Below are positions 37,218 through 57,935 of a DNA stretch of 64,000 nt, piece by piece (position 1 is the first letter of the stretch; each line of letters begins with the position of its first letter). The translations under genes and the position numbers were made by a program. The stretch comes from a virus. The notes under the pieces were generated by a model. It was not told the origin of the DNA and ran no database searches. It was given only the letters and a program-made list of their open reading frames with translations. Where the stretch lies: the IMG/VR virus record IMGVR_UViG_3300007734_000761, positions 64,001 to 128,000 of that record. The stretch is one strand, 5' to 3'.

Positions 37218-37246
37218 ATTATAATAATTTTATTTTATTTTTCCAA
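37218..37246 (-). promoter_or_regulatory. Class A promoter TTGGAA-N17-TATAAT
   Basis: Exact 17-nt spacer; -10 box 7 nt before the ATG. Confidence 0.6.
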
Positions 37247-39194: not shown

Positions 39195-40170
39195 TTATTA
39201 TTTCTTCAAAAACTTTTTCAGGTATAGTTAAGGCAAAAGCAGCATTATCTTGAAATCCAAAAGTAATTACAATATTATTATCTATATTTGTTGCCCCACA
39301 AGCAAATTCTATTTTTGCGGTCATAAAATTAAAACTATCTGATGTTTTAACTATATTTCCTTGTTTATCCCATACTATTATTCTATGAGTATAAACAGCA
39401 TCTTTATTATTATTTTCATTACGCCATAAATCTACTTCATGAATTATTCCTATATCATATTTTTTCCAAGAAATAATTTGAGAATTGCCTCTAAGTTGAT
39501 AAGGAGTATTTATTTTAAATTCTTCACCTTGAAATGTTATTTCACTTTTTCCTGTAATAGGATCTACTTTTACTATTTGAGTTGGATTAGTCCATCTTAT
39601 ATAATGATAAGGCTTATCTAAGATAGGCATCCAATTTTTTTCACAGTAAGAATACTCATCTATAGGGGGTTGGATTCTTAATCTTGAAATTTCTTGAACA
39701 ATATCACCTTTAAATATGATTTGAGATAATTCCATTCTGCCTTCTCCATTAGGAGTAGTATCTCGTCTTACACCAGTTAAATATAATTTATTATCCCATT
39801 TAACTAAACGAGCATCTTCTAGTCCAACAAATTCCCAAATAGGAGTTTTGTCAAAATAACGTGTGTCTACTTTATAAGTTTTTTTTACAGATAAATCATT
39901 ATTCAAAACACATAAATAATTTATTGTTTTTAATCTAGCATCATCTTCTGGGTTTAAATAAGCTAAAGGTCCCCAATGAGACTGATATTTTTGTTCATTA
40001 GGGCAATGATACAAAGAATATTCTACATGTCTTACAACACATAGTATTTCATCATCTATAAAAATAGAAGGATTACATATACCTGTACCTCCTGTTAAAT
40101 CAGCAGATATTTTAAGAGGCATTATAGAACCTCCTTTATCTAAAACTAATTTTACTAAATTATCTATCAT
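39187..40170 (-). CDS. Five-bladed beta-propeller glycosidase/phosphorylase-like protein (GH130-like)
   Basis: NPSI, GLEDARL, EKNWMP, IEFACG, FGFQD. Confidence 0.65.
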   Translation of the reverse strand: MIDNLVKLVLDKGGSIMPLKISADLTGGTGICNPSIFIDDEILCVVRHVEYSLYHCPNEQKYQSHWGPLAYLNPEDDARLKTINYLCVLNNDLSVKKTYKVDTRYFDKTPIWEFVGLEDARLVKWDNKLYLTGVRRDTTPNGEGRMELSQIIFKGDIVQEISRLRIQPPIDEYSYCEKNWMPILDKPYHYIRWTNPTQIVKVDPITGKSEITFQGEEFKINTPYQLRGNSQIISWKKYDIGIIHEVDLWRNENNNKDAVYTHRIIVWDKQGNIVKTSDSFNFMTAKIEFACGATNIDNNIVITFGFQDNAAFALTIPEKVFEEIING

Positions 40171-40754
40171 TTGTAAGATTCACCTCCTGCCCAAAGTACT
40201 AAGCTTCTTCTTAAACCTGATGTTAATGGTGTTACTCTATGTAAAATAAAAGATGGAAATAAAACTACAGCTCCTTTTTTACGAGGAACAGCAAACGAAC
40301 CATTTCCAGGATGTAATTCTAAATCTCCACCAACATATTCATTAGGGTCTGATAATTGAACAACTACTGATACTTTTCTGTGGTTAATGCCATCAGGACC
40401 TATGTCTAAGTGCCAATCATAATGACCACCATTACCCTCATATTCTGTGTATTGAATATTATCTATAATTGTATGTAAATTAAATCCCCATAAAGTTTTA
40501 TTAGCTTCAGTAACATAACTAGTTATTCTATCATAAACCCATGCCCATTGTTGTTCATATGATAACCACTTAACATTACTTTTTCTTACTGATTCATTTG
40601 GATCGTTTCCAACAATCTGTGCTTTTTGAAATGAGTATTTTTTAGAATCTTTAATAATTTTATCTACTTCTTCTGAAGTAAATCCGTTTTCAAACCAATA
40701 ATAATTAGTTTGATTGATTTCACGATTAAGGGGAAATATAGGCTTTAATTCCAT
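40167..40754 (-). CDS. 2OG-Fe(II) oxygenase (prolyl-hydroxylase/PKHD-like)
   Basis: YDWHLD (HxD), RKVS, Y.GGDL, FPSF..HRVTP...G.R.SLV.W. Confidence 0.9.
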   Translation of the reverse strand: MELKPIFPLNREINQTNYYWFENGFTSEEVDKIIKDSKKYSFQKAQIVGNDPNESVRKSNVKWLSYEQQWAWVYDRITSYVTEANKTLWGFNLHTIIDNIQYTEYEGNGGHYDWHLDIGPDGINHRKVSVVVQLSDPNEYVGGDLELHPGNGSFAVPRKKGAVVLFPSFILHRVTPLTSGLRRSLVLWAGGESYK

Positions 40755-40793: not shown

Positions 40794-41687
40794 TTATAAA
40801 CCAAATCTTCCTCTTATAGCATCCCAGTTTTGAGCTACTTCTCCAGCAGATAATTCTCTATCGTACATATGGAAAGCAGCAATGTTTCCTGTTAGTCGTC
40901 TAAAATCATATCTAGGGTCACCTCCTAATACTAAAGTATTACCTCCGTTATTTATAATTCCATTTCCTCCACCCGCTGTTCCTGATAAACTACCATTTAA
41001 ATAAATTTTTGTGGCTGTATTACTATATGTACCTACTACTTGATACCAGTTTCCTGCTGTTAAATTAACACCTGTAGTTGCTGCTATAATATTATAACTT
41101 CCTGGAGGATTAGCATTTACATAAAATGAAAGACTTGTAGAACCTAAAGTACCATTTGGATGAAGTAACCACATATTAGATGTTACCCAATCATCTGTAT
41201 TATAAGTTGATTGACCTGCTCCTGCTCCTATAGCCCAAGAACCATTAGCTTTTATCCATATTTCAACTGTAAACTCATTTAAAGGATTAGGACCAGGATT
41301 AGATCCTATATAATCATCAGCACCATCAAAAGTAAAAGATCCACCATTTGTAGGATCCCATCCTCCCCCATTATATAAAGTTCCATCATATGATGGAAAA
41401 CCTCCAGCAACGTCTGTTATACTAGTTCCAAATCCAGGATATGAACCTATAGTAGGCCAAGCATCATAGTTTAATATTAACCCAGATGTTACTATCCATT
41501 GTCCTGTATATCCATACCATTGGTTTGGAGAATAATTAGCACCTCCTGGATTTGTGGGTTGAATGTAACTATAGGCATTTAAAGCACCATAAGTTCCATT
41601 ATAAGCATCTTGTAAATTAAAACTACTACCAGCTCCAAATTCGGAACGAATTTGTCCATATGATATTTGTCCTGAGTAAGGTAACAT
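40794..41687 (-). CDS. LamG/ConA-like lectin-domain fibre tip adhesin
   Basis: FDGADDY, FTVEIWIK, WYQVVGTY, KIYLNG, YDRELSAGEV; short N-terminal attachment-like segment; follows the fibre gene (gp37/gp38-like order). Confidence 0.8.
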   Translation of the reverse strand: MLPYSGQISYGQIRSEFGAGSSFNLQDAYNGTYGALNAYSYIQPTNPGGANYSPNQWYGYTGQWIVTSGLILNYDAWPTIGSYPGFGTSITDVAGGFPSYDGTLYNGGGWDPTNGGSFTFDGADDYIGSNPGPNPLNEFTVEIWIKANGSWAIGAGAGQSTYNTDDWVTSNMWLLHPNGTLGSTSLSFYVNANPPGSYNIIAATTGVNLTAGNWYQVVGTYSNTATKIYLNGSLSGTAGGGNGIINNGGNTLVLGGDPRYDFRRLTGNIAAFHMYDRELSAGEVAQNWDAIRGRFGL

Positions 41688-44080
41688 TATTTATTTTTTA
41701 ATATTTCAACTTCTGCTTTAAGTTCTTTAATAGCTTGTATCAATAAAGGTACTAATCTATCATAAAGAACTGTTTTATATTCACCCCATTCAGCTATTAC
41801 TTCAGGCATTACAGATTCAATTTCTTGAGCTATAACCCCAACTTCACGTTTACCTACTCTTGATGGAGCCATTTCTTCTGCTTCTGGAGTCCAATTAAAT
41901 CTAACACCTCTAATATGATCCATTAAATCTAAAGCTGAATCAATATTTTCTACATTTGTTTTTAATCTACCATCTGAGAAGAAGGCTATAATATTACCTG
42001 TAGCTCTAATTTCTCCAGCAATACCTGGTGCAGGAGTATTTACTCCTAATGAATTAATTTGAGCATCTGAGTTAGTTGTAAATCCACCTGTTGTTCCTTG
42101 AGCACCTGTAGGGCCAGGACCTCCTGTAGGACCTGTTGGGCCTGGAGAACCAGTAGGACCTGCTGGGCCTTGAGGACCAGTAGCACCTTGAGGACCTGTA
42201 CATCCTGTAGCACCTGGAGCACCTGTGTTACCTTGTGGACCTTGTGGACCTAAAGGACCTGTAGGACCCGTAGCTCCTTGAGCTCCAGTAGCGCCTTGAG
42301 GACCTGTAGGACCTGTTGGACCAGTTGGACCTGTAGCGCCTGCAAATCCTTGAACACCTTGTGGACCTGTTGGACCAGTTGGACCTGTACTTCCTTGAAC
42401 TCCTGGAGCGCCTGTTGGACCTTGAGGACCTGCTGGACCTTGAGGACCAGTTGCACCTGTGGATCCTTGGGCACCTGTAGCGCCTTGTGGACCTGTTGCT
42501 CCGGTTGTACCCTGAGCGCCTGTAGCGCCTTGTGGACCTTGTGGACCTGTTGCACCTTGAGGACCTGTTGCACCAGTTGTACCCTGAGCGCCTGTAGCGC
42601 CTTGAGGACCAGTTGATCCTGTAGCGCCTTGAGCACCAGTTGAACCTTGAGGACCGGTTGCACCCGCAAAACCTTGTACACCTTGTGGGCCAGTAGGACC
42701 TGTTGGACCTGTAGTTCCTTGAACTCCTGGGGCACCTGTGCTACCTTGTGGACCAGTAGGACCCGTAGGACCTGTTGCACCAGTAGTACCTTGAGCGCCT
42801 GTATTACCTTGAGGACCCTGTGGGCCAGTAGCACCTTGTGCACCTGTATTACCTTGAGGACCTTGTGGGCCTGTTGCTCCTGTAGCGCCTTGAGCACCAG
42901 TTGAACCTTGAGGACCTGTTGCACCAGTAGTACCTTGAGCTCCCGTATTTCCTTGTGGACCTTGAGGACCAGTAGGACCTGTAGCACCTACTATACCTTG
43001 AACACCTTGAGGACCTTGTGGACCTGTAGGGCCAGTTGTACCTTGAACTCCTGGAGCACCTGTAGGGCCTTGAGGACCTAAAGGACCTGTTGGGCCTGTA
43101 GTACCTTGTGCACCTGTTGCGCCTTGTGGACCTTGAGGACCTAAAGGACCTGTTGGACCCGTAGCGCCTTGAGCACCTGTAGCACCTTGAGGACCTGTTG
43201 CACCAGCGAAACCTTGTACACCTTGTGGACCTTGAGCTCCTTGAGGACCAGTAGTTCCTTGTATTCCAGGTGCTCCAGTAGTACCAGTTGTACCTTGTGC
43301 TCCTGTATTACCTTGAGGACCTTGAGCACCCGTTGTACCTTGAGCTCCTTGAGGACCTTGTGGACCTAACGGACCTGTTGGACCAGTAGCTCCTTGAGCT
43401 CCTGTATTACCTTGAGGACCTTGAGCTCCAGTAGTACCTTGTGCGCCTGTGTTACCTTGAGGACCAGTTGCTCCTGTAGTACCTTGAGCTCCGGTTGCTC
43501 CAGTAGCACCTACAATACCTTGAACACCTTGAGGACCTTGAGCTCCTACAGCACCTTGAATACCTTGAGGACCTTGAGGACCTAATGGACCAGTAGCTCC
43601 TTGAGCTCCAGTGTTACCTTGTGGACCTTGAGGACCTGTAGTACCTTGAGCGCCTGTATTTCCTTGAGGGCCTTGAGCACCTGTAGCGCCTTGAGCACCA
43701 GTTGAACCTTGAGGACCAGTAGTTCCTTGAGCTCCTGTAGCACCTTGTGGACCAGTTGTACCTTGAGCTCCTGTAGCACCTTGTGGACCAGTAGCACCTT
43801 GAGGGCCAGTTGGACCTGTTGTTCCTTGAGCACCTGTATTACCTTGAGGACCTTGAGGACCTGTTGCACCTTGAGGACCAGTTGCTCCAGTAGGTCCTGT
43901 AGAACCCTGAGCTCCTGTAGCACCTTGAATACTTGCTGCTGGTCCTCCATTTACAGAAATACTTACTCCTTGAGCAACTGCTGGTGTTCCAGTTGTTTGC
44001 ATAGTCAGTGTAACGGTTTGAGTACCATCAACAAACTTTAATATACCTGTAGCGGGTGTTATTTGGACGTTTTTTGCCAT
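41687..44080 (-). CDS. Collagen-like tail fibre with C-terminal peptidase S74 intramolecular chaperone
   Basis: ~204 Gly-X-Y triplets ([15 protein letters not shown]); SDGRLK..., [21 protein letters not shown]. Confidence 0.9.
42089..43924 (-). repeat. Collagen Gly-X-Y coding repeat (9-nt period)
   Basis: Direct translation. Confidence 0.95.
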
Positions 44081-44094
44081 TTATATATAAATAT

Positions 44095-47000
44095 TTATTC
44101 TCTAATATATTCTGTTATTAATTTATCTACATCTTTACGTTCACCGTATACTACATAATAACAATCTATATTACCTTCTTCAATTCCTATTGTCACTTTT
44201 TCAGGATTAGCTGATATTACATATAAGTTTTGTGGTTTACCTATTGAGGTTAAAGTTACTGTTATAGAATCTTCATGTACTAAATCAGTCCAATAATATG
44301 GTAATTCAATAGTGTTGTTATTAGTTAATCTACCTCTAACATATACACCAATTTCTGGACCTTCAAGTACTGAGTATCTTAATCTCCAAGGTTCTTTTTT
44401 AGTTGGGTGAATAATGTCAAAGTTTTTAATATTACCATTAATAATATCAAAATTAAGAACTCCACCAACAACAGCTCCACCAGGATTTATTGAACCTGCT
44501 CCTAAATCTAAGTTTCCTCCACCAGTGTCTATAGCACCCCCATTAGTATCAATACTACCACCTGCTAAATTAAGATTAGCACCACTATTTAAATTAAGTG
44601 TTGATCCATCAAATGTTAAATTAGCTTCACCATTAATTGTAGATGTACCTGTAGCGGTTAATACATAATTATCTGTATTATTAGTAATAGTAGTTGTACC
44701 TGATGTACCCGATGAACCACTTGAGCCAGATGTACCTGAACTTCCGCTAGTTCCATTTATACCTGATGTACCTGATGAACCTGAACTTCCACTTGTTCCT
44801 GAAGAACCGCTCGTTCCTGAAGTACCTGAAGCTCCGCTAGCTCCTGAAGTACCTGATGAACCACTTGAACCTGAAGTGCCACTTGAACCTGATGAGCCAC
44901 TTGTTCCTGATGAACCACTAGATCCAGATGTGCCTGAAGAACCGCTAGAACCTGAAGTTCCGCTTGAACCACTAGTACCGCTTGAACCTGAAGAACCGCT
45001 AGAACCTGATGTACCAGATGAACCTGAGCTGCCGCTCGTTCCTGATGAACCACTTGATCCACTTGTTCCTGAAGAACCTGAAGAACCACTTGTGCCTGAA
45101 GAACCTGAGGAACCACTTGTGCCTGAAGTACTATTAACTCCGCTTATACCAGAAGTACCAGATGATCCTGATGTTCCACTTGATCCACTTGAACCACTAG
45201 TTCCAGAAGAACCTGAGCTTCCACTTGTTCCTGATGAACCACTAGAACCTGATGTACCAGAAGAACCGCTTGTTCCACTTGAACCTGAAGAGCCTGATGT
45301 TCCACTTGATCCACTAGAACCTGAAGTGCCTGAACTTCCTGAAGTTCCTGATGATCCACTTGTTCCTGAGCTTCCGCTTGAACCTGAAGTGCCTGAACTA
45401 CCTGATGAACCTGATGTACCGCTTGAACCTGAAGAACCACTAGTACCTGAAGAACCTGATGTGCCAGATGATCCACTTGTTCCTGAGTTACCTGATGAAC
45501 CTGATGTTCCTGAACTTCCACTAGAACCACTAGTACCAGATGAACCTGAAGAACCACTTGTTCCGCTTGATCCTGAAGAACCTGATGTGCCTGATGATCC
45601 ACTTGAGCCAGATGTTCCAGAAGTACCGTTAACTCCACTTATACCTGATGTACCTGAGCTGCCACTTGATCCGCTTGTTCCTGAGGAACCTGAAGAACCG
45701 CTTGTTCCTGAACTTCCACTTGAACCTGATGTTCCACTTGATCCACTTGTTCCTGATGAACCCGAAGTTCCTGATGAACCACTTGATCCACTTGTTCCTG
45801 AAGAACCTGAACTTCCTGAAGTACCGCTTGAACCTGATGTGCCACTTGAGCCAGATGTTCCAGAAGAACCTGATGAACCAGACGTTCCTGAAGAACCGCT
45901 AGAACCTGAAGTACCACTTGAACCAGACGTTCCTGAACTACCTGATGTTCCACTTGTTCCAGATGCACCAGAATTTCCAGAAGAACCACTAGAACCTGAT
46001 GTTCCGCTTGAACCTGAACTACCTGAAGTTCCGCTTGAGCCTGATGTTCCTGAAGAACCGCTAGAACCTGAAGTTCCACTTGAACCTGATGAACCAGATG
46101 TTCCTGAAGAACCAGATGTTCCACTAGAACCTGAACTTCCGCTAGTTCCTGAAGAACCTGAAGAACCAGACGTTCCTGAAGAACCGCTAGAACCTGAAGT
46201 GCCAGAACTTCCACTTGAACCAGATGTTCCTGAACTACCACTAGTACCTGATGTACCGTTTACTCCGCTTATACCTGATGTTCCTGAAGATCCTGAGGAA
46301 CCTGATGTTCCACTAGAACCTGAAGAGCCTGATGTGCCAGAGCTACCTGATGTGCCTGATGAACCTGAAGTGCCACTAGAACCACTTGATCCACTTGTTC
46401 CAGATGAACCTGAACTTCCACTTGTTCCAGATGAACCTGATGAGCCACTAGTTCCTGATGATCCGCTTGTTCCTGATGATCCACTTGTACCTGAACTTCC
46501 ACTAGAACCACTAGTACCAGATGAACCTGAGCTTCCTGAAGTGCCTGAAGAACCTGATGTACCACTTGAGCCGCTAGAACCTGATGTTCCTGATGATCCT
46601 GAAGTACCAGATGAACCTGAAGTTCCACTTGAGCCGCTTGATCCAGATGTACCTGAAGAACCTGAGCTTCCACTTGTTCCTGATGAACCACTAGTTCCAC
46701 TTGAGCCAGAAGTACCAGATGAACCAGAAGTTCCTGAAGTACCATTAACACCACTTATACCTGAAGTGCCAGAACTACCACTAGTTCCACTTGAACCTGA
46801 TGTTCCACTAGAACCAGATGTTCCTGATGAACCACTAGTTCCTGAAGAGCCTGAGCTTCCGCTTGTTCCTGATGAACCACTAGTTCCACTTGAGCCAGAC
46901 GAACCTGAAGTTCCACTTGAGCCAGATGAACCTGAAGTTCCAGATGAACCTGATGTTCCTGAACTTCCTGAAGTGCCTGATGATCCTGAACTTCCGCTAG

Positions 47001-50000
47001 TTCCTGATGAACCACTTGAACCTGATGTGCCACTACTACCTGATGAGCCACTTGTTCCGCTTGAACCTGAAGAACCTGATGTACCACTTGATCCACTTGT
47101 TCCACTTGAACCACTAGTACCGGATGAGCCTGAGCTTCCACTTGTACCAGAACTGCCTGAACTGCCTGAAGTTCCAGAAGATCCACTAGTTCCGCTTGAT
47201 CCTGAAGAACCTGATGTACCTGAAGTGCCATTAACACCACTTATACCTGAAGTACCTGATGATCCTGAAGATCCTGATGTACCCGAACTACCAGACGAAC
47301 CTGAAGTGCCTGAAGAACCTGATGTACCTGAGCTACCGCTAGTTCCTGATGAACCACTTGTTCCACTTGAACCTGAACTTCCTGATGTACCCGATGAACC
47401 ACTTGAGCCAGATGTACCTGAACTTCCGCTAGTTCCACTTGAACCTGAAGTTCCTGATGAACCTGACGAGCCACTAGTTCCAGATGAACCTGATGTTCCA
47501 CTTGAACCACTTGTTCCACTAGAGCCTGATGTTCCTGAAGAACCTGAAGAACCACTTGTTCCAGATGAACCACTTGAACCAGATGTTCCTGAACTACCAC
47601 TAGTACCTGATGTACCATTTACTCCGCTTATACCTGATGTTCCACTTGAACCTGATGAACCTGATGTTCCACTAGAACCAGATGATCCTGATGTACCTGA
47701 ACTACCACTTGAGCCAGATGTTCCAGAAGACCCACTAGAACCTGAAGTTCCACTTGAACCTGATGTGCCTGAACTGCCAGAAGTTCCTGAGCTTCCACTT
47801 GTACCTGAAGTTCCTGAGCTACCGCTTGAACCTGAAGTACCTGAACTACCTGATGTTCCAGATGAACCGCTTGAACCTGAAGTGCCCGATGAACCGCTTG
47901 AACCTGATGTTCCGCTTGAACCTGAAGTGCCTGAGCTGCCACTTGAACCTGAGGTTCCGCTTGAACCTGATGTTCCTGAGGTGCCATTTACACCACTTAT
48001 ACCTGATGTACCAGATGAACCTGAAGTACCTGATGAGCCACTTGAACCACTAGTACCAGAAGAACCTGAACTACCTGATGTTCCTGAACTTCCACTAGTT
48101 CCACTTGAACCTGATGTTCCTGAACTTCCTGAAGTACCTGATGATCCCGAAGAACCACTAGTACCAGAAGAACCTGATGAACCTGATGTGCCAGAGCTAC
48201 CTGATGTGCCTGAACTACCTGAAGTACCACTAGAGCCTGATGTTCCTGAAGAACCTGAAGAACCACTTGTGCCTGATGAACCTGAACTTCCACTTGTACC
48301 AGAAGAACCTGATGAACCAGATGTGCCTGATGAACCTGAACTTCCACTTGTACCAGAAGATCCACTAGATCCTGAGGTGCCAGATGAACCTGAAGTGCCA
48401 GAAGAACCACTAGTACCTGATGTACCATTTACTCCGCTTATACCTGATGTTCCTGATGAACCTGATGTTCCTGATGAACCTGATGTTCCTGATGAACCAG
48501 AGCTACCTGAAGTTCCTGATGAACCTGATGTTCCACTAGAACCACTTGTTCCACTTGATCCTGAACTACCACTAGTACCTGAAGATCCACTTGAGCCACT
48601 AGTACCTGAAGAACCTGAAGTACCTGAAGAACCACTAGTACCTGAACTACCACTTGAGCCAGATGTTCCTGAGCTACCTGATGAACCTGATGTACCTGAA
48701 GATCCACTAGTACCTGAAGAGCCTGAAGTACCTGAAGAACCAGAGCTACCTGAAGTACCTGATGAACCTGATGAACCTGAAGTACCACTTGAACCTGATG
48801 TTCCTGAACTGCCAGAAGTACCTGAGCTTCCACTTGAACCTGAAGTTCCTGAACTGCCAGAAGTACCTGAGCTTCCACTTGAACCTGAAGTTCCTGAACT
48901 GCCAGAAGTACCTGAGCTTCCACTTGAACCTGACGTACCACTTGAGCCAGAAGTTCCAGAAGTTCCATTAACTCCACTTATACCTGAAGTGCCTGAAGAT
49001 CCGGATGTACCTGAACTGCCACTTGAGCCAGATGTACCTGAAGAGCCACTTGAACCTGATGTTCCTGATGAACCTGAAGATCCTGAAGTACCTGATGAAC
49101 CGCTTGTTCCACTAGAACCAGATGATCCTGATGTACCTGAACTGCCAGAAGTACCACTTGAACCTGAAGAACCACTTGTTCCACTTGAACCACTTGAACC
49201 TGAGGTGCCACTTGATCCGCTTGTTCCGCTAGAACCCGATGTTCCTGATGAACCACTTGTTCCTGATGAACCGCTTGAACCTGAAGTACCTGATGTACCA
49301 TTTACTCCGCTTATACCTGAAGTACCTGAAGATCCTGATGTACCTGAAGAACCTGATGTTCCTGAAGATCCACTTGAGCCAGATGTTCCTGATGAACCTG
49401 AGCTGCCTGAGGTTCCTGAAGAACCGCTAGTACCGCTTGAACCTGAACTTCCACTTGTTCCACTTGAACCTGATGAACCGGAAGTACCACTACTACCGCT
49501 TGTACCTGATGAACCTGATGATCCTGAAGTACCAGATGAGCCACTTGTTCCTGAAGAACCAGATGTCCCTGAACTTCCTGAAGAACCTGATGTTCCACTT
49601 GAACCACTTGTTCCTGATGAACCAGAGCTGCCTGATGTTCCTGAAGAACCTGAGGTTCCTGATGAGCCACTTGTTCCTGATGAACCTGAAGATCCTGAAG
49701 TACCTGATGAACCGCTTGTTCCTGATGAACCACTAGTACCTGAAGTACCATCTACTCCACTTATACCTGATGTACCACTAGATCCTGAAGATCCTGAAGT
49801 ACCTGATGAACCACTTGAGCCAGATGTTCCTGATGAACCTGATGAACCGCTAGTACCACTTGAACCTGAAGTACCAGATGAACCTGATGTTCCAGAAGAA
49901 CCACTAGTACCTGATGATCCACTAGATCCTGAAGTACCAGATGAACCTGATGAACCTGAGGTTCCTGAAGAACCGCTAGTTCCACTTGAACCTGAGGTTC

Positions 50001-53000
50001 CACTAGAACCCGATGAACCTGAAGTTCCTGAACTTCCTGATGAACCTGATGTGCCGCTTGAACCGCTAGTACCTGATGAACCTGATGTTCCTGATGAGCC
50101 ACTAGTTCCTGAAGAACCGCTTGAACCTGAGGTGCCACTTGAACCACTAGATCCTGAAGTGCCAGATGAACCTGAAGAGCCTGAAGTACCAGATGAACCT
50201 GACGTTCCAGATGAACCTGAAGTTCCAGATGTACCATTTACACCACTTATACCTGATGTACCACTAGATCCTGAAGATCCTGAAGTACCTGATGAACCTG
50301 AAGAACCTGATGTTCCTGAAGAACCTGAGGTTCCTGAAGAACCGCTTGAGCCAGAGGAACCTGAAGATCCGCTTGTTCCACTTGAACCTGAAGACCCAGA
50401 TGTTCCTGATGAACCTGAACTTCCTGAAGTGCCACTTGAACCAGATGTTCCGGATGAACCACTTGTACCACTTGAACCTGAAGAACCTGAGGTTCCAGAT
50501 GAACCTGATGATCCTGAAGTGCCACTACTTCCACTAGTTCCTGAAGAGCCTGAAGTACCAGATGATCCTGAAGATCCTGAAGTTCCACTTGAACCTGAAG
50601 AACCTGAGGTGCCACTTGAACCTGAAGAACCTGAGGTACCACTTGAACCAGAAGTTCCGCTTGAGCCACTAGTACCTGACGAACCGCTAGTGCCTGATGT
50701 ACCATCCACACCACTTATACCTGAAGTACCTGAGCTACCTGAAGTTCCGGATGAACCACTTGAACCAGAAGTTCCGGATGAACCTGAAGTACCACTAGAG
50801 CCTGATGTTCCTGATGAACCACTTGAACCACTTGTTCCGGATGATCCGGAAGTGCCTGATGAACCACTAGTACCTGACGATCCGCTTGAACCAGACGTTC
50901 CTGATGAACCACTTGAACCAGAAGTTCCTGAAGAACCGCTAGTTCCACTTGATCCTGAAGTGCCACTTGAACCTGAAGATCCTGATGTTCCTGATGAACC
51001 ATTTGTTCCACTAGAACCAGATGATCCTGATGTGCCAGATGAACCTGAACTACCACTTGTTCCACTTGAACCTGAAGAACCTGAAGTTCCAGATGAACCT
51101 GATGAGCCACTGGTTCCTGAAGAACCAGAAGTTCCGCTTGAGCCACTAGTACCTGATGTACCGTCAACTCCACTTATACCTGAAGTACCTGAGCTACCGC
51201 TCGTACCTGATGAACCACTTGAGCCAGATGTACCACTAGATCCTGAAGAACCTGATGTTCCACTAGAACCGCTAGTTCCAGATGAGCCTGATGTACCTGA
51301 ACTTCCACTAGTTCCTGATGAACCACTTGAACCACTTGAACCAGAAGTTCCTGAAGAACCACTTGTTCCACTTGAACCACTTGTTCCTGATGAACCTGAC
51401 GTTCCAGATGAACCAGATGTCCCTGAACTTCCTGAAGAACCTGATGTTCCACTTGAACCTGAAGTACCAGATGAACCTGAACTTCCACTAGTTCCTGAAG
51501 AACCAGAAGATCCTGAAGTACCTGATGAACCTGACGTTCCAGATGAACCTGACGTTCCAGATGAACCTGAGCTACCTGCGGTTCCTGAAGAACCACTTGT
51601 CCCAGATGAACCAGAAGTACCTGACGTACCATCAACTCCACTTATACCTGAAGTGCCGCTTGAACCTGAAGTACCAGATGAACCTGAACTTCCGCTAGTT
51701 CCTGATGAACCACTTGAGCCAGATGTACCAGAAGAACCGCTTGTTCCACTTGAACCTGATGTTCCTGAAGAACCTGATGAACCCGAGGTACCTGAACTGC
51801 CACTAGTACCTGATGAACCTGAAGTGCCAGATGAACCTGATGAACCTGAAGTTCCTGAAGAACCTGAGCTGCCTGATGTGCCAGATGAACCTGAGGTTCC
51901 TGAAGAACCACTAGAACCAGACGTTCCTGAGCTGCCTGATGTACCACTAGAACCGCTAGTGCCTGATGAACCTGAAGATCCTGAAGTGCCTGATGAGCCA
52001 CTTGAACCACTTGTACCACTTGAACCTGAAGATCCTGAAGTACCTGATGAACCAGAGGTGCCACTTGAGCCGCTAGTTCCGGATGAACCAGAAGTACCTG
52101 ACGTGCCATCTACTCCACTTATACCTGAAGTACCTGAGCTGCCTGAACTACCTGATGTGCCTGAACTACCAGAGCTGCCTGATGTGCCTGAACTGCCGCT
52201 TGAACCAGATGTACCTGATGAACCACTAGTACCTGAACTACCTGACGTACCACTTGAGCCAGAAGATCCTGAAGTACCAGAACTACCTGACGAACCACTA
52301 GTCCCACTTGAACCTGAACTTCCACTTGTTCCTGATGAACCTGAACTTCCTGACGTACCACTTGAGCCAGAAGTGCCAGAACTACCTGATGTTCCTGATG
52401 AACCACTTGAGCCAGATGTACCTGATGTGCCATCTACTCCACTTATACCTGAAGTACCACTACTTCCTGAGGAACCAGAAGTACCTGATGAACCACTTGT
52501 TCCTGATGAACCTGAAGTGCCACTTGATCCACTAGAACCTGATGTTCCTGAAGAACCTGACGTACCACTTGAGCCGCTTGAACCACTTGTTCCACTTGAA
52601 CCTGATGAACCTGAAGTACCACTAGAACCAGATGTTCCACTACTACCACTTGTACCATCAATCCCAGAAGTACCTGATGAACCACTTGTGCCTGAACTAC
52701 CTGATGTTCCTGATGTTCCGTTTATACCTGAAATTCCAGAAGTTCCTGAGCTGCCACTTGAACCTGAAGTACCACTAGAACCAGAACTACCTGATGTTCC
52801 TGAACTTCCTGAAGAACCTGAGGTTCCACTACTACCACTTGTACCTGATGATCCTGAACTACCTGATGTTCCTGAACTGCCGCTCGTTCCTGATGAACCT
52901 GATGTACCTGAAGATCCTGAAGTGCCTGATGAGCCTGAAGATCCTGAAGTACCGGAACTACCTGAAGTGCCACTTGAACCTGATGTACCACTTGAACCAC

Positions 53001-54489
53001 TAGTGCCTGAGGATCCTGAAGTACCTGATGAGCCACTAGAACCAGAAGTTCCTGAACTACCTGAAGTTCCTGATGAACCTGATGAACCATCAACTCCACT
53101 TAAACCTGAAGTACCCGAAGTACCAGATGAGCCTGATGAGCCACTAGTACCTGATGATCCACTTGTTCCTGAAGAACCTGAACTACCTGACGTGCCACTT
53201 GAGCCAGATGTTCCCGAACTTCCACTTGAACCACTTGTACCTGATGAACCTGAGCTTCCTGAAGTACCAGACGAACCTGATGTTCCTGAACTTCCGCTAG
53301 TTCCACTTGAACCTGAACTTCCACTAGTTCCTGAAGAACCGCTTGAGCCAGATGTTCCCGAACTTCCACTAGTTCCTGAAGAACCGCTTGAGCCAGATGT
53401 ACCTGATGAACCACTTGTTCCACTACTTCCTGAAGTGCCAGATGAGCCTGAGCTACCTGAAGTACCAGATGAACCACTTGTTCCTGAGCTTCCGCTTGTA
53501 CCGGATGAACCTGATGAACCGCTAGTTCCACTTGAACCTGAACTTCCGCTAGTTCCTGAAGAACCACTTGAGCCAGATGTACCTGACGAACCGCTTGTTC
53601 CTGAAGAACCACTTGTTCCACTTGAACCAGATGAACCAGATGTTCCTGAGCTTCCACTTGTTCCACTTGAACCTGAAGTACCTGAAGAACCACTTGAACC
53701 TGAAGTACCTGAAGAACCACTTGAGCCAGATGTGCCTGATGAACCGCTAGTTCCTGATGAACCAGATGTTCCACTTGTTCCGCTTGAACCTGATGTTCCT
53801 GAAGTGCCAGATGAACCGCTAGTACCTGATGAACCACTAGAACCTGATGTTCCACTTGAACCACTTGTACCTGATGAACCAGATGTGCCTGATGAACCTG
53901 AGCTGCCACTTGTACCAGATGAGCCAGATGTTCCTGATGAACCTGACGTGCCTGAACTACCCGAAGTGCCAGAAGAACCAGATGTACCATTTGTACCTGA
54001 AGTACCGTTTGTGCCAGATGTTCCACTAGTTCCTGAAGTTCCTGAACTACCACTAGTTCCTGAGGTTCCTGAACTGCCACTAGTACCTGATGTTCCACTT
54101 GTGCCAGATGTACTAAAATCAGCTATTGGAGCATATGTAAATTGTCCAGAACTAGTATCATATGTTATAAAATAACCTGATGAAGAGTTTTCACTTACTC
54201 CTAAAACTATAAAAGGATTTGAACCTGAAATTAATAATGATCCAGTAATTACAGCTGAACCTGAAAACGGAAATCCTGCTCCTCCACTACCTGAAGAAGC
54301 TATTCCATAACTAACTAATCCTGTTGCTGGATCATATGTTAAATTATATGAGGCTGAAAGATCATTTTCTACTCCAATAAGTGTTAATGGGTTTGAGCCT
54401 GAAATTATTACACTCTCACTAATGCTACCTGTAATAGATAAATCATTAGATAAATACCACCCTAACTGTTCTGGTCTTACTCTTGCCAT
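44095..54489 (-). CDS. Giant Gly-Ser/Thr-Ser repeat fibre protein (3464 aa)
   Basis: Unique N-terminus, ~3138-aa (GSS/GTS)n region, C-terminal fibre-type domain KNFDIIHP...LEGPE.GVYVRG...ERKDV; same strand and packing as neighbours. Confidence 0.85.
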   Translation of the reverse strand: MARVRPEQLGWYLSNDLSITGSISESVIISGSNPLTLIGVENDLSASYNLTYDPATGLVSYGIASSGSGGAGFPFSGSAVITGSLLISGSNPFIVLGVSENSSSGYFITYDTSSGQFTYAPIADFSTSGTSGTSGTSGSSGTSGTSGSSGTSGTSGTSGTNGTSGTNGTSGSSGTSGSSGTSGSSGTSGSSGTSGSSGSSGTSGSSGTSGSSGTSGSSGSSGTSGSSGTSGTSGSSGTSGTSGSSGTSGSSGTSGSSGSSGTSGSSGSSGTSGSSGTSGSSGTSGSSGSSGTSGSSGTSGSSGTSGSSGSSGTSGSSGSSGTSGSSGSSGTSGSSGTSGSSGTSGSSGSSGTSGSSGTSGSSGTSGSSGSSGTSGSSGTSGSSGSSGTSGSSGSSGTSGSSGTSGSSGTSGSSGSSGTSGSSGSSGTSGSSGTSGSSGSSGTSGSSGTSGSSGSSGTSGTSGLSGVDGSSGSSGTSGSSGTSGSSGSSGTSGSSGTSGSSGTSGSSGTSGSSGTSGSSGSSGTSGSSGTSGSSGTSGSSGTSGSSGSSGTSGSSGTSGSSGSSGTSGSSGSSGTSGSSGSSGTSGISGINGTSGTSGSSGTSGSSGTSGIDGTSGSSGTSGSSGTSGSSGSSGTSGSSGSSGTSGSSGTSGSSGSSGTSGSSGTSGSSGTSGSSGSSGTSGISGVDGTSGTSGSSGSSGTSGSSGTSGSSGTSGSSGSSGTSGSSGSSGTSGSSGSSGTSGSSGSSGTSGSSGTSGSSGTSGSSGSSGTSGSSGSSGTSGSSGSSGTSGISGVDGTSGTSGSSGTSGSSGTSGSSGTSGSSGSSGTSGSSGSSGTSGSSGSSGTSGSSGTSGSSGTSGSSGSSGTSGSSGTSGSSGSSGTSGSSGSSGTSGSSGTSGSSGTSGSSGSSGTSGSSGTSGSSGTSGSSGSSGTSGSSGSSGTSGSSGTSGISGVDGTSGTSGSSGTSGSSGTAGSSGSSGTSGSSGTSGSSGTSGSSGSSGTSGSSGSSGTSGSSGTSGSSGSSGTSGSSGTSGSSGTSGSSGTSGSSGTSGSSGSSGSSGTSGSSGTSGSSGTSGSSGTSGSSGSSGTSGSSGSSGTSGSSGTSGISGVDGTSGTSGSSGTSGSSGTSGSSGSSGTSGSSGSSGTSGSSGSSGTSGSSGSSGTNGSSGTSGSSGSSGTSGSSGTSGSSGTSGSSGSSGTSGSSGSSGTSGSSGTSGSSGTSGSSGSSGTSGSSGTSGSSGTSGSSGSSGTSGSSGTSGISGVDGTSGTSGSSGTSGSSGTSGSSGTSGSSGSSGTSGSSGSSGTSGSSGSSGTSGSSGTSGSSGTSGSSGSSGTSGSSGSSGTSGSSGTSGSSGTSGSSGSSGTSGSSGSSGTSGSSGSSGSSGSSGTSGSSGTSGSSGSSGTSGSSGSSGTSGISGVNGTSGTSGSSGTSGSSGTSGSSGSSGTSGSSGSSGTSGSSGSSGTSGSSGTSGSSGTSGSSGTSGSSGSSGTSGSSGSSGTSGSSGTSGSSGTSGSSGSSGTSGSSGSSGTSGSSGTSGSSGTSGSSGTSGSSGSSGTSGSSGSSGTSGSSGSSGTSGISGVDGTSGTSGSSGTSGSSGTSGSSGSSGTSGSSGTSGSSGTSGSSGSSGTSGSSGTSGSSGSSGTSGSSGTSGSSGTSGSSGSSGTSGSSGTSGSSGSSGTSGSSGSSGTSGSSGTSGSSGSSGTSGSSGSSGTSGSSGTSGSSGTSGISGVNGTSGTSGSSGSSGTSGSSGTSGSSGTSGSSGTSGSSGSSGTSGSSGSSGTSGSSGTSGSSGSSGTSGSSGTSGSSGSSGTSGSSGSSGTSGSSGSSGTSGSSGTSGISGVNGTSGTSGSSGTSGSSGSSGTSGSSGTSGSSGSSGTSGSSGTSGSSGSSGTSGSSGTSGSSGTSGSSGSSGTSGSSGSSGTSGSSGTSGSSGTSGSSGSSGTSGSSGSSGTSGSSGTSGSSGTSGSSGSSGTSGSSGSSGTSGSSGTSGSSGTSGSSGSSGTSGSSGTSGSSGTSGISGVNGTSGTSGSSGTSGSSGTSGSSGSSGTSGSSGSSGTSGSSGSSGTSGSSGSSGTSGSSGSSGTSGSSGTSGSSGTSGSSGTSGSSGSSGTSGSSGSSGTSGSSGTSGSSGTSGSSGTSGSSGSSGTSGSSGSSGTSGSSGTSGISGVNGTSGTSGSSGTSGSSGSSGTSGSSGTSGSSGSSGTSGSSGSSGTSGSSGTSGSSGSSGTSGTSGSSGTSGSSGTSGSSGTSGSSGSSGTSGSSGSSGTSGSSGSSGTSGSSGSSGTSGISGVNGTSGTSGSSGTSGSSGSSGTSGSSGSSGTSGSSGTSGSSGTSGSSGTSGSSGSSGTSGSSGTSGSSGTSGSSGSSGTSGSSGSSGTSGSSGTSGSSGTSGSSGTSGSSGSSGTSGSSGSSGTSGISGVNGTSGTSGSSGSSGTSGSSGTSGSSGSSGTSGSSGSSGTSGSSGTSGSSGTSGSSGSSGTSGSSGSSGTSGSSGSSGTSGSSGSSGTSGSSGTSGSSGTSGSSGSSGTSGSSGSSGTSGSSGTSGSSGSSGTSGSSGTSGSSGTSGSSGTSGSSGTSGISGVNGTSGTSGSSGTSGSSGTSGSSGTSGSSGSSGTSGSSGSSGTSGSSGTSGSSGTSGSSGSSGTSGSSGTSGSSGSSGTSGSSGSSGTSGSSGTSGSSGTSGSSGSSGTSGSSGSSGTSGSSGSSGTSGSSGTSGSSGTSGSSGSSGTSGSSGSSGTSGISGVNGTSGTSGSSGTSGSSGSSGTSGSSGSSGTSGSSGSSGTSGSSGSSGTSGSSGTSGSSGSSGTSGSSGSSGTSGSSGTSGSSGSSGTSGSSGSSGNSGASGTSGTSGSSGTSGSSGTSGSSGSSGTSGSSGSSGTSGSSGTSGSSGTSGSSGSSGTSGSSGSSGTSGSSGTSGSSGTSGSSGSSGTSGSSGSSGTSGSSGSSGTSGISGVNGTSGTSGSSGSSGTSGSSGSSGTSGSSGSSGTSGSSGSSGTSGSSGNSGTSGSSGTSGSSGTSGSSGSSGTSGSSGSSGTSGSSGSSGTSGSSGTSGSSGTSGSSGSSGTSGSSGSSGTSGSSGTSGSSGSSGTSGSSGSSGTSGSSGSSGTSGSSGTSGISGVNSTSGTSGSSGSSGTSGSSGSSGTSGSSGSSGTSGSSGSSGTSGSSGSSGSSGTSGSSGTSGSSGSSGTSGSSGSSGTSGSSGSSGTSGSSGSSGTSGASGASGTSGTSGSSGTSGSSGSSGTSGINGTSGSSGTSGSSGSSGTSGTTTITNNTDNYVLTATGTSTINGEANLTFDGSTLNLNSGANLNLAGGSIDTNGGAIDTGGGNLDLGAGSINPGGAVVGGVLNFDIINGNIKNFDIIHPTKKEPWRLRYSVLEGPEIGVYVRGRLTNNNTIELPYYWTDLVHEDSITVTLTSIGKPQNLYVISANPEKVTIGIEEGNIDCYYVVYGERKDVDKLITEYIRE
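44692..54105 (-). repeat. ~1046 x 9-nt degenerate repeat encoding Gly-(Ser/Thr)-Ser, punctuated by ~20 GISGV(D/N)G-type markers
   Basis: Direct reading; marker spacings of 279-630 nt are all multiples of 9. Confidence 0.95.
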
Positions 54490-54490
54490 C

Positions 54491-55720
54491 TTATTGGAAT
54501 TTTCCTATTATTAATACAGAATCTGGGTTAGGGCTTGAAGGTGAATTTAATTCAAATCCTAAACCAGACAATGATGTGTTAAACGTAAATACTATATCAT
54601 TTCCAATTTGTTGTAAATTAAAGAAATTAGGTTCTGTGTTAATTCCGTTTATTAATACAATAAATTGATTTTTTCCTGTTGGTGGTAATGGGTCAGGAGC
54701 AACCATAATTTGTTTACCATATAAAGTAGCTTGATTCGTACTAGTTACAATAGCTAAAGCTGAATTATTTGTATTTAAATATTGTGATACTGCTGCAAAT
54801 GATGCTGGGGTTATTATTGGTGGACTTAGTGGATTCACATTCGTTATTTTTGGTTTTTTTACATTTACTGGAATTATTAAATCATCTACTGCATATTCGT
54901 TAAAAATTACTTGACCTTTACTTACATATGCCATATCATGTGATAAATATGCATTTATAGTGTCGGGTATTAAATAACCATGTAATTTCATTGTGATTTT
55001 ACTAACAACAGTTCTTTCTTCTTCTGCTGAGTATTGAACAGATGTTGGAAAAGACTCTATATTTACTCTAAAATAATAACGATTTTTATCTCCCCAATAA
55101 CTATTTTCAGCATATTGTACAGCTTCAAGTATTCTATTGGATTGTTCTACAAAATCTGCATAAATATTTAATTCATATGTAATAGTAACATAATCTGGGT
55201 GTGCTACCACCATCATTTCTTTTACTGGTTGGCGATTATTTAACACATTAAAATTATCATAAGCATTTTTATTGGTAAATTGTCTTTCAAAAACATGAAC
55301 GTTTTGAGCTAAATTACCATCAAGATTTCTACCTACATTACGATTTTTTGTTACATCTGTTCTGTTAACTACAATAAGAGGAGCAATAATTTTACCACTT
55401 ACATCACGTAAAAATCCTTCTTTTTGCATTGCTACCCATCTTTCAGGATAAGCATATATTACAGGAACATCAATAAGTTCTGTATTACTGTATACTGTAG
55501 GTTTAATGTTATTTTTAATATGTTCTAATACAGCCGTATCAATATCAATTAATTTAACACTAAAATTTTTCTCTCTAGTGCCTTTTTGTGATACTTTTAA
55601 AGCTCTATTAGGTTTACTAACCATAGGCTCTTTACCATAACTAGCAAGTTCATAAGGTACAATTTTATCTTGTACTTCTTGTGCGGGAGTTTTAGGTATA
55701 GGTTTTCTTACTTGAGCCAT
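54491..55720 (-). CDS. Putative tail terminator/completion protein (gp15-like) with C-terminal extension
   Basis: VPVIYAYPERW, P.I.V.R, PDYVTITYE; follows the neck genes. Confidence 0.55.
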   Translation of the reverse strand: MAQVRKPIPKTPAQEVQDKIVPYELASYGKEPMVSKPNRALKVSQKGTREKNFSVKLIDIDTAVLEHIKNNIKPTVYSNTELIDVPVIYAYPERWVAMQKEGFLRDVSGKIIAPLIVVNRTDVTKNRNVGRNLDGNLAQNVHVFERQFTNKNAYDNFNVLNNRQPVKEMMVVAHPDYVTITYELNIYADFVEQSNRILEAVQYAENSYWGDKNRYYFRVNIESFPTSVQYSAEEERTVVSKITMKLHGYLIPDTINAYLSHDMAYVSKGQVIFNEYAVDDLIIPVNVKKPKITNVNPLSPPIITPASFAAVSQYLNTNNSALAIVTSTNQATLYGKQIMVAPDPLPPTGKNQFIVLINGINTEPNFFNLQQIGNDIVFTFNTSLSGLGFELNSPSSPNPDSVLIIGKFQ

Positions 55721-56334
55721 TATTGTATTTTATAAGGTAAAATATTAAGTTTAATAGGTCTAGTCATTATTGTATCTAATTCAAATACTAAACTTTGACC
55801 TCTTTTATTTAAACTACTACTTTCAAAATTAGAAGCACCATAGATATATTGATCATCATTACCGAAATCAATCCAGTTTTCGTTTACATTATAAACTTCA
55901 TAGTATCTTTCTCTATCTAAAATAATGTCTCCTACTTCAGGCATTACTCCAATTTTAAGCATCATTTCATGTACAAACCAGAATTGAGATTTTTGTGTAT
56001 TACTTACACCATAATCTTCTACTATTTGAAGTTCATCACCTCTATCAATATAACATTTAATAAGAACAGGTTGATAGTACCATTTTGAAGTACTTTCACC
56101 ATAGATATTTGTAGATGAATTAGTAGCACTTATTTTATAATAAGGCACTTGCATTGACATTAATCTTTTATAAGCTTCTGTAATAGAAGTTACTTGAAAA
56201 TCAATGTCATTACCTGGAGCAAAGGGCATAGGTCTAGCTAATCCATCTGGTTGAGATGGTAAAGCTTCATAATCACCGGGGGTGGTAACTTTTTGGCCTG
56301 GTACTCTGAAAAATGCTCCTGGTTTGTTAGTCAT
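55720..56334 (-). CDS. Head closure / neck protein (gp14-like)
   Basis: YYKI, NIYGES, PEVGDII...YYEV. Confidence 0.6.
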   Translation of the reverse strand: MTNKPGAFFRVPGQKVTTPGDYEALPSQPDGLARPMPFAPGNDIDFQVTSITEAYKRLMSMQVPYYKISATNSSTNIYGESTSKWYYQPVLIKCYIDRGDELQIVEDYGVSNTQKSQFWFVHEMMLKIGVMPEVGDIILDRERYYEVYNVNENWIDFGNDDQYIYGASNFESSSLNKRGQSLVFELDTIMTRPIKLNILPYKIQ

Positions 56335-57935
56335 TATAGAATGTAAATAGGTGAAGGTAAAGGTATATTATTCATAATAGCATTGTTAGCATCATCTTCA
56401 GCTTTTTGTCTTTCTAACTGTTTTTGTTTTGAAGTTTCATCTAATAAAACTCTAAGTTCTTCTAATAATGCTGCTTTATCTGCTTGAGATTGACTCATCA
56501 AATCACTACTAGACATAGCTCCTACTTTTGGAACTTCTGCTGCAGGATATTTACCTCTTGAATAACCTAAAATCTCTTTACAAATTGCTAATACATACCT
56601 CATAATCCATGATTTACCTATTGAATTAATTCTAGAATATGTTGGGTTTGCATAAGGTACATTAGATACATCTGTTATGATAGGTTTATCATACGGAGGA
56701 ACGTTACTATTTTGATTTTGGTTTTGTTGTAAAACATCACTTTCTTTAGCAAACTCAAGCCATAATTTATTTCCATTTCCTGGAGGAATAGGGAATATAG
56801 TAAGTATATTATTATTTACACTAAAACTATATCCATTGTATCTTACATCCATCTGCATATTCCATTCTTGTATTCTTTGTATGTCAAAATACACAGGCCA
56901 CTGAATGTATGAATTATATCCATATCCACCATAAAATCCAAACATATCAGCGGTAGCACCTACACCTCCTAAACCAGGGTATGGGCTTGTCATCCATGCT
57001 TGAGCAGGAGGAGCTTGATAAAATACTCTAACTACTACAGGATTATCTTTTAAACTAATAAGACTTTCACTAACAAACAATGTTTTTAAGTCATACGTTT
57101 GTTGACCATCTATTAGGTCAATACTCGCGCTATATACTGGAATATCGCGTATGAAAGCTTGGTCCGCATAATTATTGGCGATTCTTATAGTTCCACCTAA
57201 AGTTCGGTCAATAAGTCGAGTATTCATATTATAATCTGACTTATAAGCTATATATTGTACTACTTGAGTTGTAGGTGTTATACTAGCATTAGGATCTACA
57301 TCTAAAATATAATTATTATTTACATAACTAGCAGATACATAAAAATAATCTGCAGAATTAATAAAAGGAAGAGGATTTTTTACAACAAAATAAACATTTC
57401 CACCTTTCATGTAAGTATATTGGGGTAAAAAATTACCACACTGATTTTCAATGCCAAAAGATTGTACTAAACTGAAGTCAGCTCTAGACATTGATGGAAT
57501 AACACTAGCAGAAACTACATAAAATATACTTCCACTATTAATAGCCCATTGCATTTCTGGGGCCGATGTAAAATCTGAAGCTACAGCTACTTCTGGTGGG
57601 CTAAACGATAAAGAAGCATTAAAGTAACTTACATTATATTCACATAAAAAACTATCTGTGTAACTACCTTCTATTGATAAGTAGTTTTCTCTTACTTTAT
57701 AAAGATAAACTTCATTACCATAAGTAGTTACTGCTTCTTCCATAGCAGCATATATTTGAAAATCTACAAGTTCAACGTCAACTACACCAAAACCTAAACG
57801 TCGGGTTACATAAAAACAAGCACGTTGTGCATCGTTTTGAAACGTTGGATCATTATCATAGTAACCGAAAGGAGTATTACCAGGAACTGGTAATAGATCG
57901 GATGTGGATAGGGCGTAATTGTAATCTTGAGACAT
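56334..57935 (-). CDS. Neck / head-tail adaptor protein (gp13-like) with internal insertion
   Basis: RRLGFGVVDVEL, EEAVTTY, WIMRYVLAICKEILGYSRGKY, L.EELR. Confidence 0.65.
   Translation of the reverse strand: MSQDYNYALSTSDLLPVPGNTPFGYYDNDPTFQNDAQRACFYVTRRLGFGVVDVELVDFQIYAAMEEAVTTYGNEVYLYKVRENYLSIEGSYTDSFLCEYNVSYFNASLSFSPPEVAVASDFTSAPEMQWAINSGSIFYVVSASVIPSMSRADFSLVQSFGIENQCGNFLPQYTYMKGGNVYFVVKNPLPFINSADYFYVSASYVNNNYILDVDPNASITPTTQVVQYIAYKSDYNMNTRLIDRTLGGTIRIANNYADQAFIRDIPVYSASIDLIDGQQTYDLKTLFVSESLISLKDNPVVVRVFYQAPPAQAWMTSPYPGLGGVGATADMFGFYGGYGYNSYIQWPVYFDIQRIQEWNMQMDVRYNGYSFSVNNNILTIFPIPPGNGNKLWLEFAKESDVLQQNQNQNSNVPPYDKPIITDVSNVPYANPTYSRINSIGKSWIMRYVLAICKEILGYSRGKYPAAEVPKVGAMSSSDLMSQSQADKAALLEELRVLLDETSKQKQLERQKAEDDANNAIMNNIPLPSPIYIL

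Follow-up and report, generated by a model that had tools for sequence, protein, structure and literature searches.

Gene P0001 of an uncultured virus encodes a protein in which glycine returns at every third residue over more than a thousand triplets, and which we read as a homotrimeric collagen-like fibre made up of an anchor, a shaft and a knob; we give this reading a probability of about 0.6. The gene lies on the minus strand of the stretch of DNA analysed here (the window: 64,000 nucleotides, bases 64,001-128,000 of one 176,311-bp phage contig, IMGVR_UViG_3300007734_000761), and all coordinates below are those of the window. The source phage is a T4-like myovirus, uncultured and from water: its major capsid protein is of the T4 type and shares 49% identity with the one in Flavobacterium phage immuto and 45% with the one in Microcystis phage Mel-JY01, and genes for a tail sheath and a tail tube are present in the genome. 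Every gene in the window is on the minus strand, and P0001 accounts for 16.2% of the window and 5.9% of the genome. Its product has 3,464 amino acids (aa), a mass of 284 kDa and a pI of 4.1, and consists of an N-domain of 128 aa, an array of 1,045 Gly-X-Y triplets, and a C-terminal neck and knob of together 198 aa, laid out as follows.

44095..54489, minus strand: P0001, the whole fibre gene, intact, with 3,464 codons and a stop codon
54304..54489, minus strand: N-terminal anchor, residues 1-62, conserved, with 51 positions invariant against the 3,246-aa orthologue and the 186-aa collagen-free allele described below
54106..54303, minus strand: second half of the N-domain, residues 63-128, an internal repeat of the anchor-type motif, with a low-confidence fold model
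44692..54105, minus strand: Gly-X-Y array, residues 129-3266, 1,045 triplets and one in-register Gly-to-Ser replacement, without proline
45130..45132, minus strand: the single Ser codon (AGT) at a Gly position, residue 3120, a substitution that keeps the register
44431..44691, minus strand: post-collagen neck, residues 3267-3353, with an N-x-VLTATG...NLTFDGSTL motif and short Gly/Asp-rich repeats
44098..44430, minus strand: C-terminal knob, residues 3354-3464, phrog_17490, a predicted beta-sandwich

The array keeps to its rule with few departures. By script count, Gly occupies its position in 1,045 of the 1,046 triplets between residues 129 and 3266; the triplets are GSS (568), GTS (427), GIS (18), GVN or GVD (18) and a few others. 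The X position is held by Ser (568), Thr (432), Ile (21) and Val (18), and the Y position by Ser in 1,019 of 1,045 triplets (97.5%). Over 3,138 residues there is no Pro, Lys, Arg or Glu and a total of eight Asp, and the longest unbroken run of Gly-X-Y comprises 997 triplets. A preliminary description of this DNA, made from its letters alone, had noted the glycine period over some 1,046 triplets, Ser or Thr at X, almost invariable Ser at Y, the lack of proline and near-lack of charge, and a share of about 16% of the window, and the counts bear all of this out. The one break that it placed at a VNST motif near 45130 is the single irregularity of the array, but turns out to be the in-register substitution listed above and no insertion or deletion; likewise, its length of 3.1 thousand residues fits the repeat alone, whereas the whole protein has 3.46 thousand. 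With 0.286 nm for each residue, the array would be 897 nm long, so that the earlier estimate of about 900 nm holds as arithmetic; the figure of 0.9 micrometres is a calculated contour length, not an observed dimension.

Nineteen markers of the GIS-GV(N/D) type dot the array at spacings of 96-210 residues, with no spacing occurring more than three times, and between them GTS returns at every second or third triplet. The markers (44757-53110, minus strand) take the form GVD in the N-terminal half of the array and GVN in its C-terminal half, and the same tendency is seen in another allele of the gene, which has 534 triplets. The Pfam Collagen model (PF01391) scores residues 140-700 at 270 bits against a gathering cut-off of 27.2, a match that is largely one of composition and period. 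On the opposite strand, an open reading frame (ORF) of 3,099 codons (44876..54175, plus strand) was considered as a gene and rejected, because its acidic, Pro-rich, period-3 reading (VPLEPDEP...) is a by-product of the codon pattern and the homologous domains and neighbouring genes all lie on the minus strand.

The regularity belongs to the protein and not to the DNA. The chance that equal residues are written with the same codon is 0.375 between in-register windows and 0.39-0.40 between neighbouring marker-anchored superunits, and a random draw from P0001's own codon usage gives 0.34-0.41; with codon identity at the random level, there is no DNA-level repeat beyond the one that the protein sequence imposes. 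Because synonymous sites are saturated while all Gly but one are in place and Ser at Y is maintained through both the TCN and the AGY codon families, the three-residue period is itself under strong purifying selection and is not the outcome of recent slippage.

An array of this kind could have been produced by the assembly, either as an expansion or as a chimera of population variants, in which case the true gene would be far shorter and resemble the 534-triplet allele. Two observations lend themselves to such an explanation: the identical 409-aa protein encoded directly upstream of P0001 is found on nine contigs from other samples, all of which stop 73-291 codons into P0001, and a complete allele of 1,929 aa exists. 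That all nine contigs break off inside the start of the gene indicates, however, that short-read assemblers fail consistently at the repeat, and the six contigs that are readable match the first 221-875 nt of P0001 at 99.5-100%. An expansion would leave near-identical copies in the DNA, whereas here the codons are random between units, exact repeats in the 9.4-kb array reach 89 bp at most, and no 101-mer occurs twice. The 10.4-kb frame is open throughout, with homologous N- and C-domains at its ends, and related arrays with about 1,000 triplets occur in two further assemblies, namely in a complete 3,246-aa ORF with 1,007 triplets on an IMG/VR contig (the orthologue P0042) and in one of 2,963 aa or more, with no fewer than 965 triplets, on a SPAdes contig in ENA. 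The 534-triplet allele was also weighed as a collapsed copy of the P0001 array and rejected, being nowhere more than 85% identical to it. The danger of an assembly expansion, raised in the preliminary description, is thus for the most part met by the evidence of the DNA and of contigs from elsewhere: the length of the array is very probably real, and an artefact is very unlikely.

The same assembly behaviour bears on how often such genes come to light. Among proteins of 1.9-6 thousand residues that share words with the repeat of P0001 in a collection of 5.8 billion proteins, the longest Gly-X-Y run is 82 triplets; since assemblies break at such genes, the collection probably has too few of them. 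This fibre class is systematically cut off in short-read metagenome assemblies and hence missing from metagenomic gene catalogues.

What the array is likely to form is best seen from its alleles. The fibre locus is hypervariable, with the first 62 residues nearly invariant across three allele kinds. The first kind joins the anchor to a Gly-X-Ser array and the same knob, with 1,045 triplets here and 534, equally unbroken, in the complete 1,929-aa allele; the second continues from the anchor and a Gly-X-Ser array into a collagen with proline and then a Peptidase_S74 chaperone (one protein of 3,246 aa and one of at least 2,963 aa); the third is a collagen-free protein of 186 aa that is followed by other fibre genes. 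Between alleles, the DNA of the N-domain is 91-94% identical (54100-54489 compared), and about 100 bases into the array the identity falls to the compositional baseline of some 60-70%, with triplet patterns that are no longer colinear. Module exchange at the boundary and fast turnover of the array are both candidates for this abrupt drop. The N-domain (residues 1-128) found no family match in Pfam or PHROGs, its AlphaFold2 (AF2) model from a 3-sequence alignment is unusable (mean predicted local distance difference test, pLDDT, 37.5), and its relatives in the protein atlas are solely short viral fragments that carry collagen.

The strongest single item for a trimeric, collagen-type helix is the orthologue P0042. 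Gly-X-Ser array and GPQ/GAQ/GPL collagen alternate within its one chain, the passage from proline collagen into Gly-X-Ser being in register and the step out marked by a two-residue Ile-Thr break, and its C-terminus is a Peptidase_S74 intramolecular chaperone, a domain known from the ends of trimeric fibres and spikes in phages. Because P0042 thus joins the same anchor and the same Gly-X-Ser sequence to proline collagen and S74 in a single polypeptide, we read the shaft of P0001 as a probable triple helix. Many shorter fibres of the GSS/GTS/GNS type, with 35-392 triplets, are encoded on related contigs, and some of them end in S74 or carry the post-collagen motif of P0001; in relatives, the neck motif likewise stands after collagen and before an S74 domain. 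Some related contigs have three or four serine-type collagen-like genes in a row, of 60-392 triplets each, upstream of a TibC-like gene.

The preliminary description had also proposed that the chain might fold back on itself as a polyglycine-II bundle like the snow-flea antifreeze protein, perhaps with ice-binding activity. A Gly-X-X period with small residues would suit such a fold, and polyglycine-II sandwiches exist in phage adhesins. A bundle, however, is made of short polyproline-II segments of about 10-13 residues and needs turns every 10-15 residues, whereas the array of P0001 runs for 997 triplets without turn-forming interruptions at that scale and its markers recur in register every 96-210 residues, and the orthologue, in which the array is continuous with proline collagen and S74, speaks for a trimer of parallel chains instead. 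This fold is therefore disfavoured, and we consider it barely credible.

At the other end of the protein, the knob belongs to phrog_17490 (E 7e-45), a PHROGs family of unknown function with 3,703 representatives at 50% identity, and the family core F-x-I-x-HP...LEGPE...RG...ERKD is present at the extreme C-terminus of P0001. Among the matches listed, the knob always takes up this extreme C-terminal place, in proteins of 126-3,198 aa. A few knob-bearing proteins have short proline-free collagen stalks, and none of the long ones (1.9-3.8 thousand residues) has Gly-X-Y runs, which shows that the knob is not bound to collagen. Pfam lacks a model of the knob, no relative of the C-domain was found in the PDB by sequence, no C1q/TNF-like match turned up, and the C-terminus of P0001 gave no Peptidase_S74 match, whereas the neighbouring protein P0002, P0042 and relatives do. 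An alignment of 32 sequences has 22 invariant columns, including His, Glu, Arg and Trp, and supports an AF2 model of the knob with pLDDT above 90. The best structural match (VIA) is the C-terminal domain of the receptor-binding region of the cyanophage Pam1 tailspike (Z 8.2, root-mean-square deviation 2.0, 66 residues); others are the fibre tips of R2 pyocin and AP22, a phage receptor-binding protein bound to LptDE, and H-type lectins. Trimeric fibre tips thus resemble the modelled knob at borderline Z scores of up to 8.2. As a lead from this model, the knob could be a distal, lectin-like receptor domain, and the invariant polar residues together with the weak H-type lectin matches suggest a sugar-binding site.

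Downstream of P0001 the phage encodes enzymes that could act on such a serine-rich shaft.

33392..35668, minus strand: GT4 and TibC-like (BAHT-type) glycosyltransferase, 758 aa, a candidate modifier of serines
37235-37972, minus strand: FkbM-type methyltransferase gene, a clear match
37974-39194, minus strand: second FkbM-type gene, a sub-threshold match, with a weak beta-1,4-glycosyltransferase match at the N-terminus

Residues 422-748 of the 758-aa protein match TibC (PDB 4RAP) over 327 residues at E 5e-37, and in the alignment the protein retains the equivalents of the four iron-finger cysteines (Cys339/342/358/370), Asp110, Thr226, Lys230 and Trp305. TibC hyperglycosylates serines of TibA and AIDA-I (PMC4358343), the spore protein BclA is O-glycosylated in its collagen-like region (PMC10470788), and the glycosylation of virions by phage enzymes is known in mycobacteriophages (Freeman et al. 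2023, as cited in PMC12619734). Since the GT4-TibC-like gene lies 8 kb downstream of P0001, glycosylation of the shaft serines is plausible from the gene content, although we would place it somewhat below an even chance. The preliminary description had suggested that the stability of the shaft may depend on glycosylation, and for this idea the enzyme supplies a concrete candidate. The fusion of GT4 and TibC-like parts is 86% conserved beside the orthologue P0042. Viral contigs hold 142 relatives of the TibC-like part; in the 50,697 deposited phage genomes it is found in only 4 records (one of Microcystis phage Mel-JY01 and three of huge phages). A collagen-like ORF lies upstream of the glycosyltransferase on the same strand at 17 of the 29 loci with at least 6 kb of upstream flank, five of these ORFs being of the serine type, and downstream of it at none of 41 loci; as the phages are related, the two counts describe conserved synteny rather than independent co-occurrence. 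The FkbM-type genes might serve in tailoring the glycan.

The remaining neighbours place P0001 within the structural genes of the phage.

56334..57935, minus strand: gp13-like neck gene, 533 aa, T4 gp13-like, with a weak PHROG adaptor match
54491..55720, minus strand: 409-aa gene directly upstream of P0001, whose language-model look-alike cluster partly carries T4-gp15_tss, which is a lead only
41687..44080, minus strand: P0002, 797 aa, a proline-containing collagen-like fibre with Peptidase_S74 (E 1e-13)
40794-41687, minus strand: virion protein of 297 aa with Laminin_G_3 (a concanavalin-like lectin domain), right after the two collagen-like genes
40167-40754, minus strand: PKHD-type 2OG-Fe(II) oxygenase, within the structural module that extends from the fibre genes to the sheath gene

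P0001 follows the gp13-like gene, the 409-aa gene and, between them, a gene for a 204-aa protein with a sub-threshold hint of head-tail joining, the latter two genes being small and conserved; all three precede it without a gap, and the ATG of P0001 lies one base past the stop codon of the 409-aa gene. It is in turn followed, 14 bases downstream, by P0002, in which Pro stands mostly at X (GPQ/GPT/GPL) and the counterpart of which is fused to the Gly-X-Ser fibre in P0042, where the two form one protein of 3,246 aa; then come the LamG-type virion protein, which is kept in phage immuto and in the orthologous contig, the cassette of glycan enzymes and the tail sheath gene. Phage immuto has the same gene order, and its 587-aa "tail fiber-like" protein bears the same knob. 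The oxygenase was considered as a collagen prolyl hydroxylase and rejected, its matches being to generic PKHD-type proteins and P0001 having no proline. The gene order is a positional hint of attachment at the neck; P0001 could be a neck whisker, a side fibre or a baseplate fibre.

The very long collagen-type fibre of the preliminary description is supported, if indirectly, by the selection on Gly, the contiguity of the orthologue's array with collagen and S74, the knob and the gene context. Several points weigh against it. The shaft lacks the stabilisers on which triple helices usually depend, having neither the imino acids of the animal type nor the charge pairs or Pro at X of the bacterial type, and in host-guest scales both GSS and GTS are triplets of below-average stability. 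The strict Gly-S/T-S period could itself reflect the acceptor motif of an enzyme and not a helix. The likeness of the knob to solved structures is borderline, with Z at about 8 or below, and no match reached E <= 0.001 in Foldseek. The site of attachment may be the neck, the baseplate or the head. On the side of glycosylation, Arg286 of TibC aligns to Ser in the 758-aa protein, so that a sugar other than heptose may be the donor; the phages behind the synteny counts are related and do not represent independent events; and TibC-like genes are also present in relatives that have no Gly-X-Ser fibre at the P0001 locus. The verdict of the preliminary description that GSS and GTS are poor triple-helix formers needs to be softened, however: proline is not indispensable, because the proline-free (Gly-Ala-Ser)n tract of Burkholderia pseudomallei Bucl8 gave a circular dichroism (CD) signal consistent with a triple helix, which unfolds between 25 and 50 C and is gone at 50 C (PMC7682875).

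The same points could be accommodated by a shaft that is not a triple helix at all but an extended, heavily O-glycosylated bottle-brush of the mucin type, made of single or knob-joined chains, in which the period would be the acceptor motif of the glycosyltransferase. The lack of proline and charge pairs, a composition of 46% Ser and 13% Thr and the proximity of a TibC-like protein-serine glycosyltransferase and methyltransferases would all fit such an arrangement, and the AF2 monomer shows no structure in the shaft, although a monomer run cannot reveal a triple helix anyway. A mucin-like chain would, however, hardly account for 1,045 of 1,046 Gly in place, with no indel that shifts the register, in a gene whose synonymous sites are saturated; the 534-triplet allele is likewise unbroken, and the orthologue's array runs into proline collagen and an S74 chaperone in one chain. 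We therefore regard the bottle-brush as improbable and continue to favour the trimeric collagen-like fibre.

If P0001 is expressed and assembles as such a trimer, a mechanism can be outlined. The N-terminal anchor would fix the protein to the virion, while knob and neck would trimerise three chains and nucleate a zipper that runs from the C- to the N-terminus; the shaft being free of proline, zipping would proceed without slow cis-trans isomerisation, and the irregularly spaced Ile/Val markers could penalise mis-registered pairing in an otherwise monotonous sequence. Stability may come from sheer length, from end-anchoring and from O-glycosylation of exposed Ser and Thr by the phage's GT4-TibC-like enzyme, together with the methyltransferases. 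The knob would form the distal receptor head, probably one that binds carbohydrate. The tail of the phage offers a yardstick: one ORF, of 782 aa, has as its homologue the protein annotated as tape measure in phage immuto, in agreement with its earlier identification, and at the rule-of-thumb value of 0.15 nm of tail per residue it implies a tail of about 117 nm, of which the contour of the fibre would be 7-8 times the length. As 900 nm far exceeds the persistence length of collagen, a helix of this length would be a flexible tether that reaches over a few hundred nanometres, which could enlarge the radius within which host cells or particles are captured; because the diffusive encounter rate scales with capture radius, the thread could repay its cost in dilute water. 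The most far-reaching version, in which a micrometre-scale collagen helix is held together in a third way, by dense phage-made O-glycosylation, and serves as a length-tunable line (534-1,045 triplets) for catching distant hosts, is speculative and to our mind doubtful.

A thousand-triplet shaft of Gly, Ser and Thr would test what holds a triple helix together and, if it folds, would offer a simple, uncharged scaffold for recombinant collagens, maybe a fast-folding one for want of proline isomerisation. If the shaft is glycosylated by the phage's own enzyme, this would be a second case of phage virion glycosylation after the mycobacteriophages. A thread nine times the diameter of the capsid, if true, would alter encounter-rate models for aquatic phages.

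Among known systems, T4 fibritin (wac) invites comparison through its location, being a trimeric fibre encoded beside the neck genes gp13/14/15, and through its plan, with a virion anchor at the N-terminus and a trimerisation element at the C-terminus. Fibritin forms a coiled coil of 53 nm, bears a foldon and has no Gly-X-Y, whereas P0001 has neither coiled coil nor foldon and ends in the beta-sandwich knob. The EPclA-type prophage fibres of E. coli O157:H7 (PMC3368898) and the S74-ended fibres are trimers with Gly-X-Y shafts flanked by non-collagen domains, and P0002 and P0042 belong to this collagen-like/S74 kind of phage fibre; the known phage examples, however, have tens to a few hundred triplets and contain proline, charged residues or both.

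BclA, the exosporium nap protein of Bacillus anthracis and B. cereus, has a strain-variable number of triplets that sets the length of its filaments, and a C-terminal domain that promotes trimerisation (PMC10470788). P0001 resembles it in having a short N-terminal anchor, a collagen-like region of variable length (534 and 1,045 triplets in two alleles) and a C-terminal domain, but BclA is a spore protein without sequence relation to P0001, and its triplets are mostly GPT and number in the tens and not the thousand. Bucl8 is closer in chemistry, with a proline-free, uncharged Gly-small-Ser repeat on a protein that is itself trimeric; its repeats comprise 6-38 triplets against 1,045, X is Ala and not Ser or Thr, and the protein is the outer-membrane component of an efflux pump. 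Compared with TibC and Aah (BAHT; 4RAP; PMC4358343), which hyperglycosylate serines of repeat proteins, the 758-aa enzyme keeps the iron-finger cysteines and Asp110, but it is phage-encoded, fused behind GT4 and altered from Arg286 to Ser, and the natural substrates of TibC are beta-helical adhesins and not collagen-like proteins. A search of the literature on Gly-Ser-Ser/Gly-Thr-Ser collagen and on long serine-rich phage fibres found nothing relevant.

Taken together, P0001 is nearest to BclA in plan, to the (Gly-Ala-Ser)n tract of Bucl8 in chemistry and to the collagen-like fibres of phages in descent, and in length it surpasses by an order of magnitude the examples described from phages and bacteria. 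Phage fibres of the collagen-like type were already known, and so was a short helix without proline, that of (Gly-Ala-Ser)n; for a shaft of a thousand triplets that consists essentially of Gly, Ser and Thr, no paper was found.

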